From a virus (Duplodnaviria; Caudoviricetes), in the IMG/VR virus record IMGVR_UViG_3300020045_005904, positions 1 to 24,788 of that record: a stretch of DNA of 24,788 bases; one strand, 5' to 3'. This document shows positions 2,590-18,942 of the stretch, one piece after another (position 1 is the stretch's first letter; each line of letters begins with the position of its first letter). The notes beneath the pieces are model-generated. The model did not search any database. It was not told the origin of the DNA and was given only the letters and a program-made list of their open reading frames with translations. Position numbers and translations under genes: made by a program.

Positions 2590-3963
2590 ATGGCAAAGAA
2601 AATTGTAATTGTAGGATCAGGAGTAGCAGGTGTAAATGCTGCTACCAAATTAGTAGACAATGGTTATGATGGTAGTTTAATCACCATTATTGATATGGGT
2701 AAAGACCCTTATAACAGAAAACCTGAGGAAGTAATGACAGGTTTCCTGGGTGCCGGAGGTTGGTCTGATGGTAAATTAACTTACCATACAGCAATTGGAG
2801 GTCAATTATCTAAGTACACAGGTGAGAAAAAAGCAATGGCTTTGATGGATGAAGTTATTAACAACTTTAAACGTTTTCACCCCAAACCAGAGGAAGTACA
2901 ATGCTCAAATCCAGTTGAAGAACCAGATTTTATTAAACCATATTTTGGTTTAAGATTGTTTCCTGTTTGGCACGTAGGTACAGATTATCTATCTGAAATT
3001 GCTAAAAACTGGTACGATTATTTAGTATCTAAAGGTGTACAATTTCATTGGGAAGCTAAAGTAACATCTATTGTATTTGATAAAAATTTAGTATTTGTTA
3101 AAGAATTAAATCAATATGTTATTGATAAACAAGGATTTCCTGATTTTGAAATATCTTATGATGAACTTATTTTTGCCGTAGGTAAATCAGGTATTGATTT
3201 TGCTCAACAATTACAAGATAATTACAAACTAGAAACAGAACCAAAATCAGTTCAAATTGGTGTTCGATTTGAGGCACCACAAGAACACTTCCAAAAACTA
3301 ATTGATATTAGTTACGACTTTAAATTGTATCGTAAGTTTGAAGATAAAGGTGTTTCACTTCGTTCATTCTGTACAAACAATAATGCTGCTTATGTTGCTG
3401 TAGAAGAAACATATGGTAATCATAGTTACAATGGTCATGCTAAAAAAGACGAAGCATATAGAAACAATATGACTAATTTTGGTATCTTGATGGAAATCAA
3501 TGGTATTGAAAACCCATTTGAATGGTCTCGTAAAGTAGTAAACGAATTACAGTTTGCTGGAACTGGTTTGTATTATAGCCCATCTCGTCAACCATCAAAA
3601 ACATCAGAAGGTGAAAGAGTTACTACTGTTCAAATTGAAAAATTAGATATAGTAAGACATGGAATGGGTGAGTATTGGAATTACATAGAGGATTTTATTG
3701 AGGATATGAAAAAAGTATTTCCAACACTTAAAGATGATTGGGGTGTTTATGTTCCTGAGGTAAAATATCTTTCACCTGAACCATTAGTTTATCCAAGCGA
3801 TTTGGCTCTTGTAGATTATCCAAATGTTCACTTTGTAGGTGATGCTTTATCAGCTCGTGGTATTACAGTTTCAGGAGCACAAGGGATTTTATCTGTTGAA
3901 AAACTGATTAAAACAGAATGCCCTTGGGATAATATTCAAGGAGATATTATTAATTGGAAATAA
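2590..3963 (+). CDS. FAD-dependent oxidoreductase (COG2509-like uncharacterised dehydrogenase)
   Basis: N-terminal Rossmann motif IVIVGSGVAG, GAGGWSDGKL, IGVRFE, RSFCTN and C-terminal FVGD...RGITVSGAQG. Confidence 0.8.
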   Translation: MAKKIVIVGSGVAGVNAATKLVDNGYDGSLITIIDMGKDPYNRKPEEVMTGFLGAGGWSDGKLTYHTAIGGQLSKYTGEKKAMALMDEVINNFKRFHPKPEEVQCSNPVEEPDFIKPYFGLRLFPVWHVGTDYLSEIAKNWYDYLVSKGVQFHWEAKVTSIVFDKNLVFVKELNQYVIDKQGFPDFEISYDELIFAVGKSGIDFAQQLQDNYKLETEPKSVQIGVRFEAPQEHFQKLIDISYDFKLYRKFEDKGVSLRSFCTNNNAAYVAVEETYGNHSYNGHAKKDEAYRNNMTNFGILMEINGIENPFEWSRKVVNELQFAGTGLYYSPSRQPSKTSEGERVTTVQIEKLDIVRHGMGEYWNYIEDFIEDMKKVFPTLKDDWGVYVPEVKYLSPEPLVYPSDLALVDYPNVHFVGDALSARGITVSGAQGILSVEKLIKTECPWDNIQGDIINWK

Positions 3964-4249: not shown

Positions 4250-4780
4250 ATGAAAATAGGATTATGTGGTACAATGAGTGTAGGTAAAACTACATTGGTA
4301 AATGCTTTAAAAGAATTACCTGAATTTGCAGATTATAATTTTGCAACTGAACGTTCAAAATATTTACGTGATTTAGGTATTCCATTGAATACTGATTCAA
4401 CATTAAAAGGTCAATTTGTATTTTTAGCTGAACGTTGTGCTGAGTTAATGAATGAAAACATTATTACAGATAGAACTGTAATTGATGTTATGGCGTTTAC
4501 TAAAGCAGCTAAATCAATTGAATATTATGATGCTGAAGCGTTTTGTGATGCTGCTTATAAATTACTAGAAGAATATGACTATGTATTCTATATTTCACCT
4601 GAAGGTGTTGATATGGAAGATAATGGAGTTCGTGAAACTGATTTAAGTTATAGAGAATTAATTGATTTTACTATTAAAATATTACTTTATAGAAGCCATC
4701 ATAAAATTAAAAATTATACTGAACTATCAGGTACAACTGAGGAACGTATTGCAAAAATGAAAGAGACAATTTTTGGTTAA
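4250..4780 (+). CDS. P-loop NTPase/kinase of the AAA_28 (NadR/Ttd14-like) family
   Basis: Likely start ATG 4250 (MKIGLCGTMSVGKTTL, Walker A), with ITDRTVID and YDYVFY...EDNGVR motifs. The ORF track's upstream extension overlaps the previous gene. Confidence 0.75.
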   Translation: MKIGLCGTMSVGKTTLVNALKELPEFADYNFATERSKYLRDLGIPLNTDSTLKGQFVFLAERCAELMNENIITDRTVIDVMAFTKAAKSIEYYDAEAFCDAAYKLLEEYDYVFYISPEGVDMEDNGVRETDLSYRELIDFTIKILLYRSHHKIKNYTELSGTTEERIAKMKETIFG

Positions 4781-14061: not shown

Positions 14062-15816
14062 ATGTCAAACGTACAACAATTATTAGAAAGCGCTGCTGGT
14101 TCTTGGAAGAGCTTGCAAAGCGATGCCGCTAAATTGGCTGGCAAATGGTCTAAGACCGGATTGTTAGAAGGTTTGGTTGAGGTTGATAAAAACAATATGT
14201 CATTATTGTTAGAAAACCAAGCCAAACAGTTGGTAACTGAAACAAACCAAATTTCTTCTAACTCATTTTACACTTCAGGTGGACAAGGTGAAAACTGGGC
14301 TGGTATTGCATTACCTTTAGTTCGTAAGGTATTCGGTACTATCGTAGCTAAAGAATTCGTTTCTGTTCAACCAATGAACATGCCTTCAGGACTTGTGTTC
14401 TTCTTAGATTTCCAATATGGTAACACTAAGACTCCATTTACTGAAGGTCAATCTTTGTATGGTAACCGTAATACTGCTTCTCAATTCCCATTCTCTACTC
14501 CAGCTGCTGAAGGTGGTTTATATGGTGGTACTTCAGGTCGTTTTACTTACGCTACTAATACTTTCTCAGCTTCTTTCCAAGTGTCAGCTTCTTTGACTAA
14601 CACTTTGACTAGAACTGCTGCTGGAACTGGATCTATCATATCTGCCTCATGGTCTGATTGTGATTTTGATTCTGATTACTCTGCTTCTGTAGCCTCTGGT
14701 CAGATGTACAAAATGACCATCACTGCATCTAACAGTACCTTACCTAGCTTTGACCAAGACGCCGTTCGTGGTTTTATAGCTGCTTCTGGTTCTAACTTTA
14801 GTGCTGCTACTTTAGTACCTGCTTTTACAACTTACAACTATTCTGCTAACACTATTAGCTTTGTATTCACTGGTTCAGCTAACTTTGCTTCAACTCCTCA
14901 ATCTGGATCTATTTTCGTTGTTACTTATGAAAAAGCAACTTCTCAAGATGGATTAAACGTAACTTCTGGTGATAACGTAACTAGCGGTAACTTCTCAGGT
15001 CGTGGTGATTTCGAAGCTTCTGGTTCATTCTCAGTTCCTAACTCTGCTTCTTCTACTCAAATCGTTATCCCTGAGATCAACGTTAGAATGCAATCACAAC
15101 CTATCACTGCTAAAACCAAGAAATTGAAGGCAGTATGGACTCCTGAATTTGCACAAGATTTAGCAGCTTACCAGAACATCGATGCTGAAGCTGAATTGAC
15201 TAACATCATGAGCGAGTACATTTCAATGGAAATTGATTTGGAAATCTTGGATATGTTGATCGAAGATGCTGCTGCTGCTACTGAGTACTGGTCTGCAATT
15301 AACAACACAACCATCAGCTCTAACGGAACTTTTGGTTCAGCTGGTTTCTACAACACTCAAGGTCAGTGGTTCCAAACTTTAGGTACTAAAATCCAAAAAG
15401 TATCTAACAAGATTCACCAGTTGACTCTTCGTGGTGGTGCTAACTTCTTGGTTACTTCTCCAACAATCGCTACTATCTTGGAATCAATCCCAGGATTCGC
15501 TTCTACTTCAAACGGTGAAGCTGATCAAATGGAATATGCTTTCGGTGTACAAAAAGTTGGTACTGTAAACGGTCGTTACAAAGTTTACAAGAACCCTTAC
15601 ATGACTGAAAACTTGATCCTTATGGGTTACAGAGGTTCTCAGTTCTTGGAAACTGGTGCTGTATTCGCTCCTTACATTCCTTTGATCATGACTCCATTGG
15701 TGTACGATCCTGATACCTTCACTCCACGTAAAGGTCTTTTGACTCGCTACGCTAAGAAGATGTTGCGTCCGGAGTTTTATGGAAAAATTTATGTTAGTGG
15801 ATTAAACACCATCTAA
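14062..15816 (+). CDS. gp23: Major capsid protein (T4 gp23-like) with a large Ser/Thr-rich insertion
   Basis: LPLVRKVF, VSVQPMNMPSGLVFFLDF, AKTKKLKAVWTPEFAQDL...DAEAEL...EIDLEIL and APYIPL...PDTFTPRKGLLTRY blocks; strongly biased codon usage. Confidence 0.95.
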   Translation: MSNVQQLLESAAGSWKSLQSDAAKLAGKWSKTGLLEGLVEVDKNNMSLLLENQAKQLVTETNQISSNSFYTSGGQGENWAGIALPLVRKVFGTIVAKEFVSVQPMNMPSGLVFFLDFQYGNTKTPFTEGQSLYGNRNTASQFPFSTPAAEGGLYGGTSGRFTYATNTFSASFQVSASLTNTLTRTAAGTGSIISASWSDCDFDSDYSASVASGQMYKMTITASNSTLPSFDQDAVRGFIAASGSNFSAATLVPAFTTYNYSANTISFVFTGSANFASTPQSGSIFVVTYEKATSQDGLNVTSGDNVTSGNFSGRGDFEASGSFSVPNSASSTQIVIPEINVRMQSQPITAKTKKLKAVWTPEFAQDLAAYQNIDAEAELTNIMSEYISMEIDLEILDMLIEDAAAATEYWSAINNTTISSNGTFGSAGFYNTQGQWFQTLGTKIQKVSNKIHQLTLRGGANFLVTSPTIATILESIPGFASTSNGEADQMEYAFGVQKVGTVNGRYKVYKNPYMTENLILMGYRGSQFLETGAVFAPYIPLIMTPLVYDPDTFTPRKGLLTRYAKKMLRPEFYGKIYVSGLNTI

Positions 15817-15873: not shown

Positions 15874-15881
15874 TATGTATA
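15874..15881 (+). promoter_or_regulatory. Variant late motif TATGTATA upstream of the HNH gene
   Basis: Directly after the terminator; the same variant is at 16539-16546. Confidence 0.5.
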
Positions 15882-15904
15882 ATGGACCCGAAAAATTCTG
15901 GACT

Positions 15905-16486
15905 ATGAAAAAATGTTTAAAATGTAATATAGAAAAACCAATCACCCAATTTTATAAAAAAACAGCTGAAAAAGACGGTAGACATCGTTATTGTAGTGTT
16001 TGTATGAGAGAAGAAAAAAAACAATATTATTCTGAAAATAAAGTAAAACGTGCCGACTACTATAAAGAATACCGAAAAGAAAATAAAGAATATTTTAATC
16101 AATATTGTGCAAATCATTATCATACTAAAAAGGAACTTTATAGAGAATGGAACAAAAACAAATACCATACAGATATTGGATTCAGAATAAAACATGTAAC
16201 ATCAGCTCGAATATCAGAAGCTTTAAAACTATATAATACTCTTAAAAAAGATCGTACTATAGAATATTTGGGATGTAATATGGAAGAATATACTCAATAT
16301 CTAGAATCCCAGTTTACACCAGAAATGACTTGGGATAATTATGGAGAGTATTGGGAAATAGATCATATAAAACCTATAGCTTCTTTTGATTTAAATATTG
16401 AAGAAAATTTATATACATGCTTTTATTATCTTAATACCCAACCCCTAGAAAAAACCCAAAACAGAGAAAAAAGTGATAAAATTTAA
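15905..16486 (+). CDS. Free-standing HNH (endonuclease VII-like) putative homing endonuclease with N-terminal Zn finger
   Basis: Likely start ATG 15905 (MKKCLKC...YCSVC); C-terminal YLGC...MTWDNYG..WEIDHIKP...LNTQPL...N..KS; more AT-rich than the capsid gene. Confidence 0.8.
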   Translation: MKKCLKCNIEKPITQFYKKTAEKDGRHRYCSVCMREEKKQYYSENKVKRADYYKEYRKENKEYFNQYCANHYHTKKELYREWNKNKYHTDIGFRIKHVTSARISEALKLYNTLKKDRTIEYLGCNMEEYTQYLESQFTPEMTWDNYGEYWEIDHIKPIASFDLNIEENLYTCFYYLNTQPLEKTQNREKSDKI

Positions 16487-16493
16487 TATTTTC

Positions 16494-16518
16494 CCCCGAG
16501 AAATCGGGGCTTTTTTTT
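16494..16518 (+). terminator. Intrinsic terminator after the HNH gene
   Basis: CCCCGA-GAAA-TCGGGG stem-loop followed by C and T8. Confidence 0.85.
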
Positions 16519-16538
16519 ACTAGTATAGGCCTATATAA

Positions 16539-16546
16539 TATGTATA
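16539..16546 (+). promoter_or_regulatory. Variant late motif TATGTATA upstream of the amidinotransferase operon
   Basis: Between the terminator and ATG 16576. Confidence 0.5.
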
Positions 16547-16575
16547 GCAAATACAGTTACACTAAATTAAATTTT

Positions 16576-17490
16576 ATGAAAGAGACTCCAAGTCAGTTAC
16601 CAATTCAAAGTTTCGTTATGAACTTTCCATTCTCATTATCAACAGCAGATCCAAACAATATTTGGATGCAAGAGTTAACAGATGAGGAATTAGCAATTAA
16701 TAAACCCAAAGCATACAAACAGTTTATGGATTTGTATAACTTTGTTGCGGGTGGTGCTTTAGTAAACCTATTACCTTCGGAAGGTAATTTTCAAGATCAA
16801 GTTTACGTAGCTAATTTGGGTATTTATTTACCCCATATTAAAAACGAAAACCATATTATTTTATCTAACTTCACTTCAGACCCTCGTAAAGGTGAAGAAA
16901 AAGTAGGAGAAAAATATTTTGATCAAATGGGTTATAAAACAGCTATTTCTCCTTACAAATGGGAAGGTGAGGCAGATTTGAAATACCTTTACGGAAACAA
17001 ATATATTGGTGGTTACGGTATTCGCTCAAACATCAAAGCATATGAGTGGATGGAAGAACAATACAACATGGACATTATTAAAGTGGCTATGGTTGATGAA
17101 TATTTGTATCACTTGGATTGTTCTATTTTTGCTTTAAACACTGAACAAACATTGGTTTGTACTGAATTGTTTGATGAGGAAGAATTAAAAATGATTGAAA
17201 AAGAAACTGAAATCATTGATATTCATATTGACGATGCTTTGGGTGGATTAACTAATTCAGTTCGTTTAGGTAACATGGTTTTATGTGCCTCAAACATTGC
17301 CGAATTAAAAAAATCACACGAGTATTATGAGGGTGAGGTTCACAAAATTAAAACACTAGAAAAAATTTGTGGTGATGCTGGTATGGAACCTGTTATCTTC
17401 AACCTTTCAGAATACATGAAATCAGGTGCTATGTTGTCTTGTATGATGATGCACTTAAACAGAGTTGATCACAATAAAACCTTACTATAA
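16576..17490 (+). CDS. Amidinotransferase / DDAH / arginine-dihydrolase-fold (pentein) enzyme
   Basis: Likely start ATG 16576; DQVYVAN, RKGE, WEGEAD, YHLDC and KSGAMLSC carry the Asp/His/Cys catalytic motifs of guanidino-group-modifying enzymes. Confidence 0.85.
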   Translation: MKETPSQLPIQSFVMNFPFSLSTADPNNIWMQELTDEELAINKPKAYKQFMDLYNFVAGGALVNLLPSEGNFQDQVYVANLGIYLPHIKNENHIILSNFTSDPRKGEEKVGEKYFDQMGYKTAISPYKWEGEADLKYLYGNKYIGGYGIRSNIKAYEWMEEQYNMDIIKVAMVDEYLYHLDCSIFALNTEQTLVCTELFDEEELKMIEKETEIIDIHIDDALGGLTNSVRLGNMVLCASNIAELKKSHEYYEGEVHKIKTLEKICGDAGMEPVIFNLSEYMKSGAMLSCMMMHLNRVDHNKTLL

Positions 17491-18221
17491 TGGCACAAAC
17501 ATTACAAGAATGGTTAAGTACTGAGGTTAAACAACTTCAGAAGATGCCTGTAGGCGAGTTGTCTAATGTATTTTTCTTTAGAGACCCAATTCGTCCTAAT
17601 TATATTGATCACGAGCATTTTTATAGTCCTGCTGATGGAACTATTTTATACCAAAAGTTTATTAAGGATCCTTCCGAACCTGTAGTTGAAATTAAGGGTA
17701 TGAATTATACTCTTCAAGATGTTATGGGCGATGATGAGTACAATAAACCTTCATTAGTTATTGGTATATTTATGTCATTTTATGATGTTCACATCAATCG
17801 TATACCTTACGGAGGTCTGCTGTCATATAAACCACTAGACGCGATTCAATCGACTAACAAACCCATGTTGGCGGTTGAAAAAGATATATTAAATAAAAAA
17901 ATTAACCCCGCAAACATGGAGTACTTAAAGTATAACGAGCGTATGTGGAATAAAATTTATTCACCATCTTTAGATTATACTTATTACTTAATTCAGATTG
18001 CCGACGAGGATGTAAACGTTATTGCTCCATTTACTATGGATCAAAACGATGTTTTTGCTCAAAACGAAAGATTTTCTTTAATTAGATGGGGTTCACAAGT
18101 TGATTTGGTGTTACCATTGGATGATAGATATGATTTTGAGTTATGTTTAGATGATGCTATGCATGTTAATGCTGGCTTAGACCAACTTGTAAAAATTAAA
18201 TTTAATGAATACACAACCTAA
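17490..18221 (+). CDS. psd: Phosphatidylserine decarboxylase-family (pyruvoyl) proenzyme lacking a hydrophobic N-terminal anchor
   Basis: FFRDP.R, SPADG, IFMSFYDVHINRIP, NER, QIA and the self-cleavage motif WG|SQVD; TAATG overlap with the upstream gene. Confidence 0.82.
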   Translation: MAQTLQEWLSTEVKQLQKMPVGELSNVFFFRDPIRPNYIDHEHFYSPADGTILYQKFIKDPSEPVVEIKGMNYTLQDVMGDDEYNKPSLVIGIFMSFYDVHINRIPYGGLLSYKPLDAIQSTNKPMLAVEKDILNKKINPANMEYLKYNERMWNKIYSPSLDYTYYLIQIADEDVNVIAPFTMDQNDVFAQNERFSLIRWGSQVDLVLPLDDRYDFELCLDDAMHVNAGLDQLVKIKFNEYTT

Positions 18222-18942
18222 TCACGAGGACGAGATCTTCAAAGAAAAGCGTAAGCCAAAAAATCCTATTAAGTTCAAGTTACAATTAAACGATGAACAA
18301 AAACAGGCCAAATCCAAAATATTAGACAGTACTATTACTTTATTAGCAGGTGCTGCTGGTTCAGGTAAAACATTACTTGCTTGTCAAATTGGTTTGGAAA
18401 AATTGTTTATGAGAGATGTTGAAAAGGTAATTATTACCCGACCAACAGTATCAAAAGAGGAAATTGGATTCCTACCAGGTGATTTAAGAGAAAAAATGGA
18501 TCCTTGGGTACAACCAATTTATCAGAATATGTTCTTACTTTATGATAAAACAAAGATTGAAGAACTTATTAAAGAAGATAAAATAGAAATTGTACCTGTA
18601 TCATTTATGAGAGGACGTACTTTTGTAAACTGTGTAGTAATTGTGGATGAGGCCCAAAACGTAACACACGAGCAAATGGAAATGATCGTTACCCGTATTG
18701 GTAAAGGATCTAAAATGATTATTTGTGGTGATGATGCTCAGGTGGATTTGAAACAAAAACGTGATTCTGGATTTAAATTCTTGTACACGGCAGCTAAAAG
18801 AATTAAAAGTTTAGAGGCAATATCTCTAAAACAAAACCACAGAGATCCTATAGTAGAGGACTTGATTAATCTATATAACGATGCCTATGAAAGAGGAATT
18901 AGTTTGAATACTACTGGTTCAAACGGAAATTCTAAAAAGTAA
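18205..18942 (+). CDS. phoH: PhoH-family ATPase
   Basis: GAAGSGKT, ITRP, IGFLPGDLREK, FMRGRTF, DEAQN, TRIG, GD..Q.D and HR motifs. Confidence 0.93.
   Translation: MNTQPNHEDEIFKEKRKPKNPIKFKLQLNDEQKQAKSKILDSTITLLAGAAGSGKTLLACQIGLEKLFMRDVEKVIITRPTVSKEEIGFLPGDLREKMDPWVQPIYQNMFLLYDKTKIEELIKEDKIEIVPVSFMRGRTFVNCVVIVDEAQNVTHEQMEMIVTRIGKGSKMIICGDDAQVDLKQKRDSGFKFLYTAAKRIKSLEAISLKQNHRDPIVEDLINLYNDAYERGISLNTTGSNGNSKK

Follow-up and report, generated by a model that had tools for sequence, protein, structure and literature searches.

Several viral polyamine routes have been described. According to Li et al. 2023 (PMC9992855), phages encode pyruvoyl ornithine or arginine decarboxylases derived from AdoMetDC, one of them active on both arginine and ornithine, while chloroviruses use a series of arginine decarboxylase (ADC), AIH, and NCPAH, and Klosneuvirus combines arginase with ornithine decarboxylase (ODC). 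That study reports AIH in chloroviruses alone and arginase in no phage; the words 'phosphatidylserine', 'dihydrolase', and 'amidinotransferase' are absent from its main part, although the supplements might list such genes. Viral psd is treated as a lipid gene in a further study (PMC11360552). Here we analyze the window, the whole 24.8-kb stretch (24,788 nucleotides) of IMG/VR virus record IMGVR_UViG_3300020045_005904, with relatives drawn from IMG/VR genomes. Its subject is a pair of plus-strand genes: a pentein gene (16576–17490, 304 aa, PHROG 12759), closest to the ArgZ/AgrE arginine dihydrolases, and a gene for a pyruvoyl decarboxylase proenzyme with the fold of phosphatidylserine decarboxylase (PSD) (17490–18221, 243 aa, PHROG 12670; hereafter PSD-like). 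The two genes are a conserved, co-inherited unit, and we propose, at a probability of roughly 0.47, that they form a two-enzyme module that would convert arginine to ornithine and then to putrescine late in infection, with substrates, step order, and purpose as we infer them.

Co-occurrence in gene neighborhoods had been named beforehand, in the original prediction, as the test able to refute a coupled pathway, and the survey found the two genes nearly always together. Across all fetched loci, minus those of Campylobacter and the genome tiles, a pentein lay within 3 kb of 195 of the 204 distinct PSD-like genes and a PSD-like gene lay near 194 of the 195 penteins, with every uncoupled case having less than 600 nt of contig on one side; over half of these rows belong to the window's own clade. 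Pentein and PSD-like tree distances were correlated overall (r 0.93, n = 46), among bacteria only (0.70, n = 21), and within the own clade (0.62, n = 21), values reached by 0 of 2,000 permutations each, though shared ancestry alone can yield such correlations within a clade. Judged from the ratio of nonsynonymous to synonymous substitution rates (dN/dS), both genes are under purifying selection: against G045, a complete close relative of the window, the pentein gave 0.035 (median 0.079; dS was usable for 53 of 85 sequences) and the PSD-like protein 0.030 (median 0.069; 40 of 89). No pentein–PSD fusion was found in 28 matches from 8,000 candidates among longer proteins, which is weak evidence.

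The pair is found well beyond the window's clade. In phages of T4-like, P22-like, and other kinds it sits amid virion genes, and bacteria of several phyla carry it in the order PSD-like gene, pentein, exporter, with a patchy spread (two of 41 genomes related to Hoeflea). Among 50,697 GenBank phage records, 47 matched the pentein and 45 the PSD-like protein, namely Campylobacter (40 and 39) and Bacteroides (6 and 6) phages plus one Xanthomonas record with the pentein only. Campylobacter phage NCTC12673 has both genes, 42 kb apart.

The first enzyme most closely resembles the ArgZ/AgrE dihydrolases. Its only strong profile matches in the PDB were to ArgZ/AgrE (E 1e-28, against 0.009 for DDAH), and its AlphaFold model (mean predicted local distance difference test score, pLDDT, 93.6) retrieved ArgZ/AgrE structures at all top ten Foldseek positions (TMq 0.78–0.81, E about 1e-21), with DDAH (about 0.7), amidinotransferases (0.66–0.68), and agmatine deiminase (0.60) at lower ranks. 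The Asp/His/Cys motifs, as had been claimed, are present and nearly invariant across the family. In the alignment, AgrE N22, D65, N71, R90, E118, R139, Y167, H168, D170, and N219 correspond to N28, D74, N80, R104, E130, R150, Y178, H179, D181, and N227 of the window pentein, and C289 was matched to AgrE C264 via the position of the C-terminal motif, so that equivalents of the Cys-His-Glu triad, of Asn71/Asn219, and of Arg90/Arg139 are all found. Each aligned catalytic or binding residue is kept in 194–196 of 197 pentein rows. The sole broadly deviant row (L387:6069–9060) has lost most catalytic residues; its gene is still accompanied by an intact-looking PSD-like gene, then DUF3326. The pentein has no match to PF04371 (agmatine deiminase), the true PF04371 genes being separate neighbors, and a pentein tree with outgroups was uninformative, with long branches and unsettled bootstrap support.

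In arginine deiminase (ADI) and DDAH, an arginine pair binds the substrate carboxylate, according to PMC11659421. The N71S mutant of ArgZ traps an intermediate, going by the title of its PDB entry, and the equivalent Asn is kept in the window pentein. R104 and R150 are retained in 196 of 197 penteins, among them the ones that neighbor an agmatine deiminase. Their AgrE/ArgZ counterparts R90 and R139 presumably bind the substrate carboxylate as well; because the equivalents of this arginine pair are kept, the pentein substrate is, by analogy, probably an amino acid.

The second enzyme passes the PF02666 profile (86.8 bits, cut-off 22) and fails every NCBIfam Psd equivalog cut-off (best score 73.5 bits against 183). 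Its DVH and WG-S motifs are, as originally noted, present and nearly invariant, H101 being kept in 221 of 221 PSD-like rows, D99 in 218, and G201/S202 in 220, and self-cleavage at Gly201-Ser202 is predicted to generate the pyruvoyl group. The PSD-like protein of Bacteroides phage DAC16 has Ser in place of D99. Segment 169–178 (QIADEDVNVI) has a net charge of −2 to −4 in 217 of 221 rows; the same segment carries +2 in four of six host PSD-family proteins and 0 and −1 in the other two, and the short Psd of these hosts reads QIAGLVARRI there. This acidic loop may face the substrate. The protein also carries a roughly 20-residue helical insert relative to the short host Psd. The polar N-terminus described earlier holds for 59 of 59 family members (maximum 19-residue hydropathy 0.51 or less), but by itself it does not prove solubility, since three of six other host-bacterial PSD-family proteins are equally polar by the same test. 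Matches in the ESM Atlas fell in PF02666 clusters only, and a plasmid collection gave only distant Psd-like matches (about 30%), none covering 80%.

Could the second gene simply encode a lipid enzyme, an ordinary phosphatidylserine decarboxylase carried as an auxiliary gene and adjacent to a pentein by chance? Database names point that way, and in a fold search with the AlphaFold model (pLDDT 91.1) E. coli lipid PSD came first (E 7e-7), ahead of PsiD and Ao-ADC1 (2e-3), although all matches had TM of about 0.5, a level that does not separate lipid from amino-acid decarboxylases. We find this explanation barely credible in view of scores far below all Psd cut-offs, the near-obligate pentein coupling with matching trees, the charge-reversed loop, and the separate, better-scoring Psd kept by all five host bacteria tested.

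Some members of the wider PSD domain family have unusual architectures. Three proteins (P0241, P0242, and P0271) fuse a PSD-like domain of the same subfamily to a C-terminal ADP-ribosyltransferase (ART) domain, which stands alone in P0269 and P0270; the P0242 locus was not found among viral contigs. At L272 an ART-PolyVal protein lies directly upstream of the pair, and P0244 is a PSD-like protein with an intein (LAGLIDADG-like domain) directly before the DVH motif. In three bacterial loci (L269:7001–7708, L274, and L275) the PSD-like gene has an internal stop or frameshifts, with pentein and MATE gene retained. A separate PSD-domain group (P0246–P0268) is fused to ATP-grasp, FemAB/GNAT, formyltransferase, or methyltransferase domains and has a hydrophobic N-terminus in those read; this group may tailor cell-wall or glycan amino acids.

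The first of the two pathways outlined in the original prediction, in which phospho-seryl decarboxylation and amidino transfer would place a 2-guanidinoethyl-phosphate group on a glycan, protein, lipid, or base, was not supported and now looks very improbable. It could draw on the PSD ancestry of the second enzyme, on several glycosyltransferases in the complete relative G045, on the membrane-anchored ATP-grasp, FemAB, and formyltransferase fusions, which show that distant PSDs can serve wall or glycan tailoring, and on two loci (L243 and L271) near polysaccharide genes. Yet the pentein is far from the amidinotransferases, which appear at rank 28 or lower in its fold search and outside which it falls: it is only 17% identical (23.9 bits) to the amidinotransferase-type protein of a related operon (L265:9297–10412), in which we recognize PRD and FDAAD, presumably the amidinotransferase motifs. 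The decarboxylase loop is acidic rather than basic, and in bacteria the pair is accompanied by exporters and polyamine enzymes. Pfam scans of 147 of the 155 open reading frames (ORFs) of G045 (two of them truncated at 1,500 aa) and of 44 ORFs of G051, a complete 49.7-kb P22-like phage, gave no match to serine-activating or base-hypermodifying families, with many ORFs matchless; neither scan matched any other polyamine family.

The second outlined pathway, in which an ArgZ-like dihydrolase and a repurposed pyruvoyl decarboxylase would make a polyamine, fits the fold search, the residues, and the neighborhoods, its catalysis being predicted. As we would now formulate it, the pentein would hydrolyze arginine, yielding ornithine, CO2, and two molecules of ammonia; in its self-cleaved pyruvoyl form, the PSD-fold enzyme would then decarboxylate ornithine to putrescine. 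The decarboxylase probably takes arginine too, which would explain the recurrent addition of a deiminase to the cassette, this optional enzyme salvaging the resulting agmatine. In bacteria the diamine would leave through the neighboring MATE or ABC transporter; in phages it may neutralize DNA during packaging or support late translation, the position of the genes alone suggesting the packaging role. A Pseudomonas phage raises host putrescine and benefits from it, as stated in PMC11898732, and by analogy polyamine use in phage growth is plausible.

Bacterial neighborhoods bear on where the product goes. An exporter follows the pair in 46 of 60 distinct bacterial-order loci (MATE in 39, ABC in 7), and nine of the 14 loci without one had no room for it. 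Agmatine deiminase flanks the pair in four bacterial-order loci (L250, L254, L263, and L266), while a PLP (pyridoxal phosphate-dependent) ornithine/arginine-type decarboxylase and an amidinotransferase-type gene accompany it in the L265, L471, and L474 clusters. In L265:8080–10412 and L471:11070–14410 these genes, and in L471 also a methyltransferase gene, come after the exporter and possibly make up a guanidino-amine biosynthetic cluster. Elsewhere (L241:1457–3273), three tandem 181-aa GNAT acetyltransferase genes directly follow the pair.

Such partners would also suit another small exported or stored cation, for example N-carbamoylputrescine made via citrulline, cadaverine, or a guanidino-amine, serving as a signal or conflict molecule. 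The exporters, the patchy spread, the extra decarboxylase and amidinotransferase-type genes of the three clusters, the family-specific E132 of the pentein, and two PSD-like/ART fusion proteins favor it; against it, there is no constant third tailoring enzyme, the pentein fold is nearest a true dihydrolase with the N71 and N219 equivalents kept, and a late virion-module site suits a bulk DNA counter-ion. We regard it as rather unlikely. A fuller version, to which we give still less weight and which we consider quite unlikely, would have the pair as a non-homologous arginine-to-amine pathway with an optional agmatine deiminase and an exported cation (such as N-carbamoylputrescine or a guanidino-amine) rather than plain putrescine as product; bacteria would secrete this cation via dedicated MATE or ABC transporters, and unrelated phages would time and again have brought the genes into the virion module, in some cases as ART fusions, for packaging or host takeover.

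A further partner in bacteria, a spermidine-synthase-like gene, occurs together with ArgB in two of the 60 bacterial-order loci (L250 and L254). The PSD-fold enzyme might decarboxylate S-adenosylmethionine for an aminopropyltransferase, with the pentein supplying or deprotecting the amine acceptor, and in keeping with this neither genome with such an operon has an AdoMetDC match. The idea seems highly doubtful, however: the gene is restricted to those two loci, its product scores below the NCBIfam cut-off and is degenerate, with GSDDG in place of what we take to be the active motif, GGGDG, and spermidine synthase was found in none of five complete relatives.

Phage neighborhoods raise the question of step order. 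An agmatine-deiminase-like gene touches or adjoins the pair in nine of 21 divergent phage-type loci, that is, in seven of 14 groups of our own definition; five of these deiminases were confirmed by PF04371, and those of L382 and L451 only by a profile partly built from the others. On the tree the deiminase label is scattered (nine changes; 156 of 500 shuffles were as low). The genes keep the W-x-RD, GH-x-D, and GG-x-x-x-C motifs, and several abut the PSD-like gene. In G051, pair and deiminase follow a 2,548-aa virion-module ORF. Eight of the 50,697 GenBank phage records match the deiminase, six of them from the Bacteroides DAC16 group, which is one lineage and in which four of the six names also appear among pair-bearing records; the Campylobacter phages have none. 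An unannotated agmatine-deiminase-like gene confirmed by PF04371 lies just 5' of the DAC16 portal region (L531:4749–5801, DAC16_190).

In the reverse order, the PSD-fold enzyme would be an arginine decarboxylase and the pentein would hydrolyze agmatine, or N-carbamoylputrescine from a phage or host deiminase, to putrescine. We hold this to be unlikely, although motif-intact deiminases beside the PSD-like gene, the six records of the DAC16 lineage, the lack of a nitrilase-family (carbamoylputrescine) hydrolase in all four phage records tested, and Ao-ADC1 as a precedent for a PSD-fold arginine decarboxylase all speak for it. The arginines expected to bind a carboxylate are nevertheless kept in 196 of 197 penteins, also beside agmatine deiminase, and a deiminase would be redundant if the pentein fully hydrolyzed agmatine. 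Putrescine as the product, by either order of steps, is likely.

Several observations weigh against the conversion of arginine through ornithine to putrescine that we prefer. The window pentein reaches only 81.8 bits on the NCBIfam arginine dihydrolase model (NF052232, cut-off 450), on which four relatives score 50–89 bits, and nearly as much, 79.8 bits, on the DDAH model (cut-off 300); its identity to ArgZ is 21–23%, and E132 replaces an Ala of AgrE throughout the family, so the pocket differs. For the second enzyme, lipid PSD leads the fold search. For a housekeeping polyamine an exporter of its own would be unexpected, the PLP decarboxylases of L265, L471, and L474 would be redundant with a plain ODC, and the deiminase link suggests agmatine rather than ornithine, and no carbamoylputrescine-hydrolase-family gene was found in the four phage records mentioned. 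Agmatine deiminase, like spermidine synthase, was found in none of five near-complete relatives of the window clade, and in DAC16 the adjacent pair sits among replication genes rather than virion genes.

The window itself covers the head module of a large phage of the T4-like kind. Its Gp23 capsid gene lies at 14062–15816, and from sequence and gene order we read the ORFs upstream of that gene as terminase, portal, protease, and scaffold. Its close relatives are IMG/VR genomes of 158–269 kb. In G045 a type IX secretion tail is found on a protein, a hint of a host in the Bacteroidota; this genome (L370–L378) further encodes GroES/GroEL and several glycosyltransferases, together with laminin-G tail proteins and a protein with cohesin and the type IX secretion tail. 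Two genes shared with G045 lie 5' of the packaging genes, one at 2590–3963 that resembles FAD-dependent oxidoreductases (PHROG 12409) and, at about 4250–4780, an AAA_28 kinase-like gene.

The pair had been presented as part of an operon of three with the PhoH-like ATPase gene that follows it (18205–18942). The layout is as described: three plus-strand ORFs between capsid and neck genes, the second overlapping the first by 1 nt (TAATG) and the third overlapping the second by 17 nt, with a 140-aa gene and a head-tail adaptor gene on the 3' side. PhoH is likely co-transcribed with the pair in the window clade. As a member of the pathway it was ruled out: it occurs in 112 of 204 pair loci but in none of 61 bacterial-order ones, and in several relatives its identity drops to 36–49% where the pair holds 71–92%. 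It is a passenger, linked in this phage clade only.

A hairpin with a T run, resembling an intrinsic terminator (16494–16518, stem 16494–16509, plus strand) separates the operon from the capsid gene and from an Endonuclease VII/HNH-like ORF at 15875–16486; similar hairpins lie upstream of the pentein in most of the relatives compared. Few relatives have this Endonuclease VII/HNH-like ORF, the first ATG of which is inside a ATATGTATA motif. Between terminator and promoter-like motif is a palindromic stretch (16519–16535; ACTAGT, then TATAGGCCTATA), of which the perfect 12-bp palindrome TATAGGCCTATA at 16524–16535 is a possible operator of the operon; a loosely defined pattern places TAG-containing elements at this site in 62 of 69 relatives. 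Directly downstream, at 16538–16546 on the plus strand, lies ATATGTATA. It is a variant of ATATTTATA, a motif found on the sense strand ahead of many genes of the virion module (498, 4780, 7509, 9450, 11182, 18963, and 22241). The pattern ATATKTATA, picked after inspection of the data, was counted 10 times across the window, always on the plus strand, against 2.3 ± 1.4 expected and a count reached in none of 100 shuffles. A sigma-70 promoter scan stayed at chance level (28 found, 27.7 expected).

In 69 of the 71 distinct relatives examined, a conserved ATGAAA start follows the motif at a distance of 22–36 nt; in 30 of those 69 the motif reads ATATTTATA, which lacks an ATG. Since the ATG at 16540 falls inside ATATGTATA, and since the pentein homologs are 304 aa long in 116 of the 120 best database matches listed, we place the pentein start at 16576, giving 304 aa, and rule out a start at 16540. 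Position before virion genes suggests that the motif is a late promoter. It is the reverse complement of the T4 late promoter consensus, so the window clade may possess a late sigma specificity of its own.

A search of the open-access literature, which left most subscription journals outside its range, found no description of the pentein/PSD-like pair, in line with the original statement that no described phage pathway with it was known. GenBank note AF210249 is presumably the bleomycin cluster, and no supporting paper for a link to the pair was found. If the proposal is true, putrescine would be made by two folds not credited with that job in prokaryotes or phages, and viral annotations as 'phosphatidylserine decarboxylase' or 'DDAH/amidinotransferase', now taken as lipid auxiliary genes, would be relabeled by the thousand; at E 0.001 or better, 2,453 sequence clusters matched on the PSD side and 1,341 on the pentein side, canonical relatives included. 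Cultured carriers of the pair, the Campylobacter Fletcherviruses and the Bacteroides DAC16 group, would offer a handle on whether phages produce their own polyamine for DNA packaging.

Set beside known systems, the pentein shares with the dihydrolase domain of ArgZ (Sll1336) and AgrE (Alr4995) (PDB 6jv0, 6juz, and 6lrf) the fold (TMq 0.81), the E-G-x-x-D spacing, and the aligned residues; unlike them it is a stand-alone protein with no cyclodeaminase part, is paired with a decarboxylase, and has the family-specific E132, Q73, and C182. The PSD-like protein has FFRDP, SPADG, DVH-N-R-P, NER, and RxGS in common with the short bacterial Psd (PRK05305 type) and E. coli Psd, from which it differs in lacking a hydrophobic N-terminal segment of the alphaproteobacterial kind and in forming a separate long branch. 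Ao-ADC1 of Aspergillus oryzae, a PSD-fold pyruvoyl arginine decarboxylase with His-assisted Gly-Ser self-cleavage according to PMC12904898 (PDB 9jer and 9jf5), and Psilocybe PsiD (8x4q) use the PSD fold on a free amino acid, as proposed here. These fungal enzymes are larger (Ao-ADC1 483 aa), with a GGS(T) motif and an N-terminal helical region, and are only 9–13% identical to the window protein and not its nearest fold matches; with its RWGSQ motif, its 243 aa, and a higher-ranking E. coli Psd, the window protein falls outside their clade, and the two are probably separate repurposings. By family cut-offs the pair belongs to neither the ArgZ nor the Psd family, and yet it would work like a putrescine pathway, with the same predicted net conversion of arginine to putrescine as the viral pathways described in PMC9992855, which use other folds.

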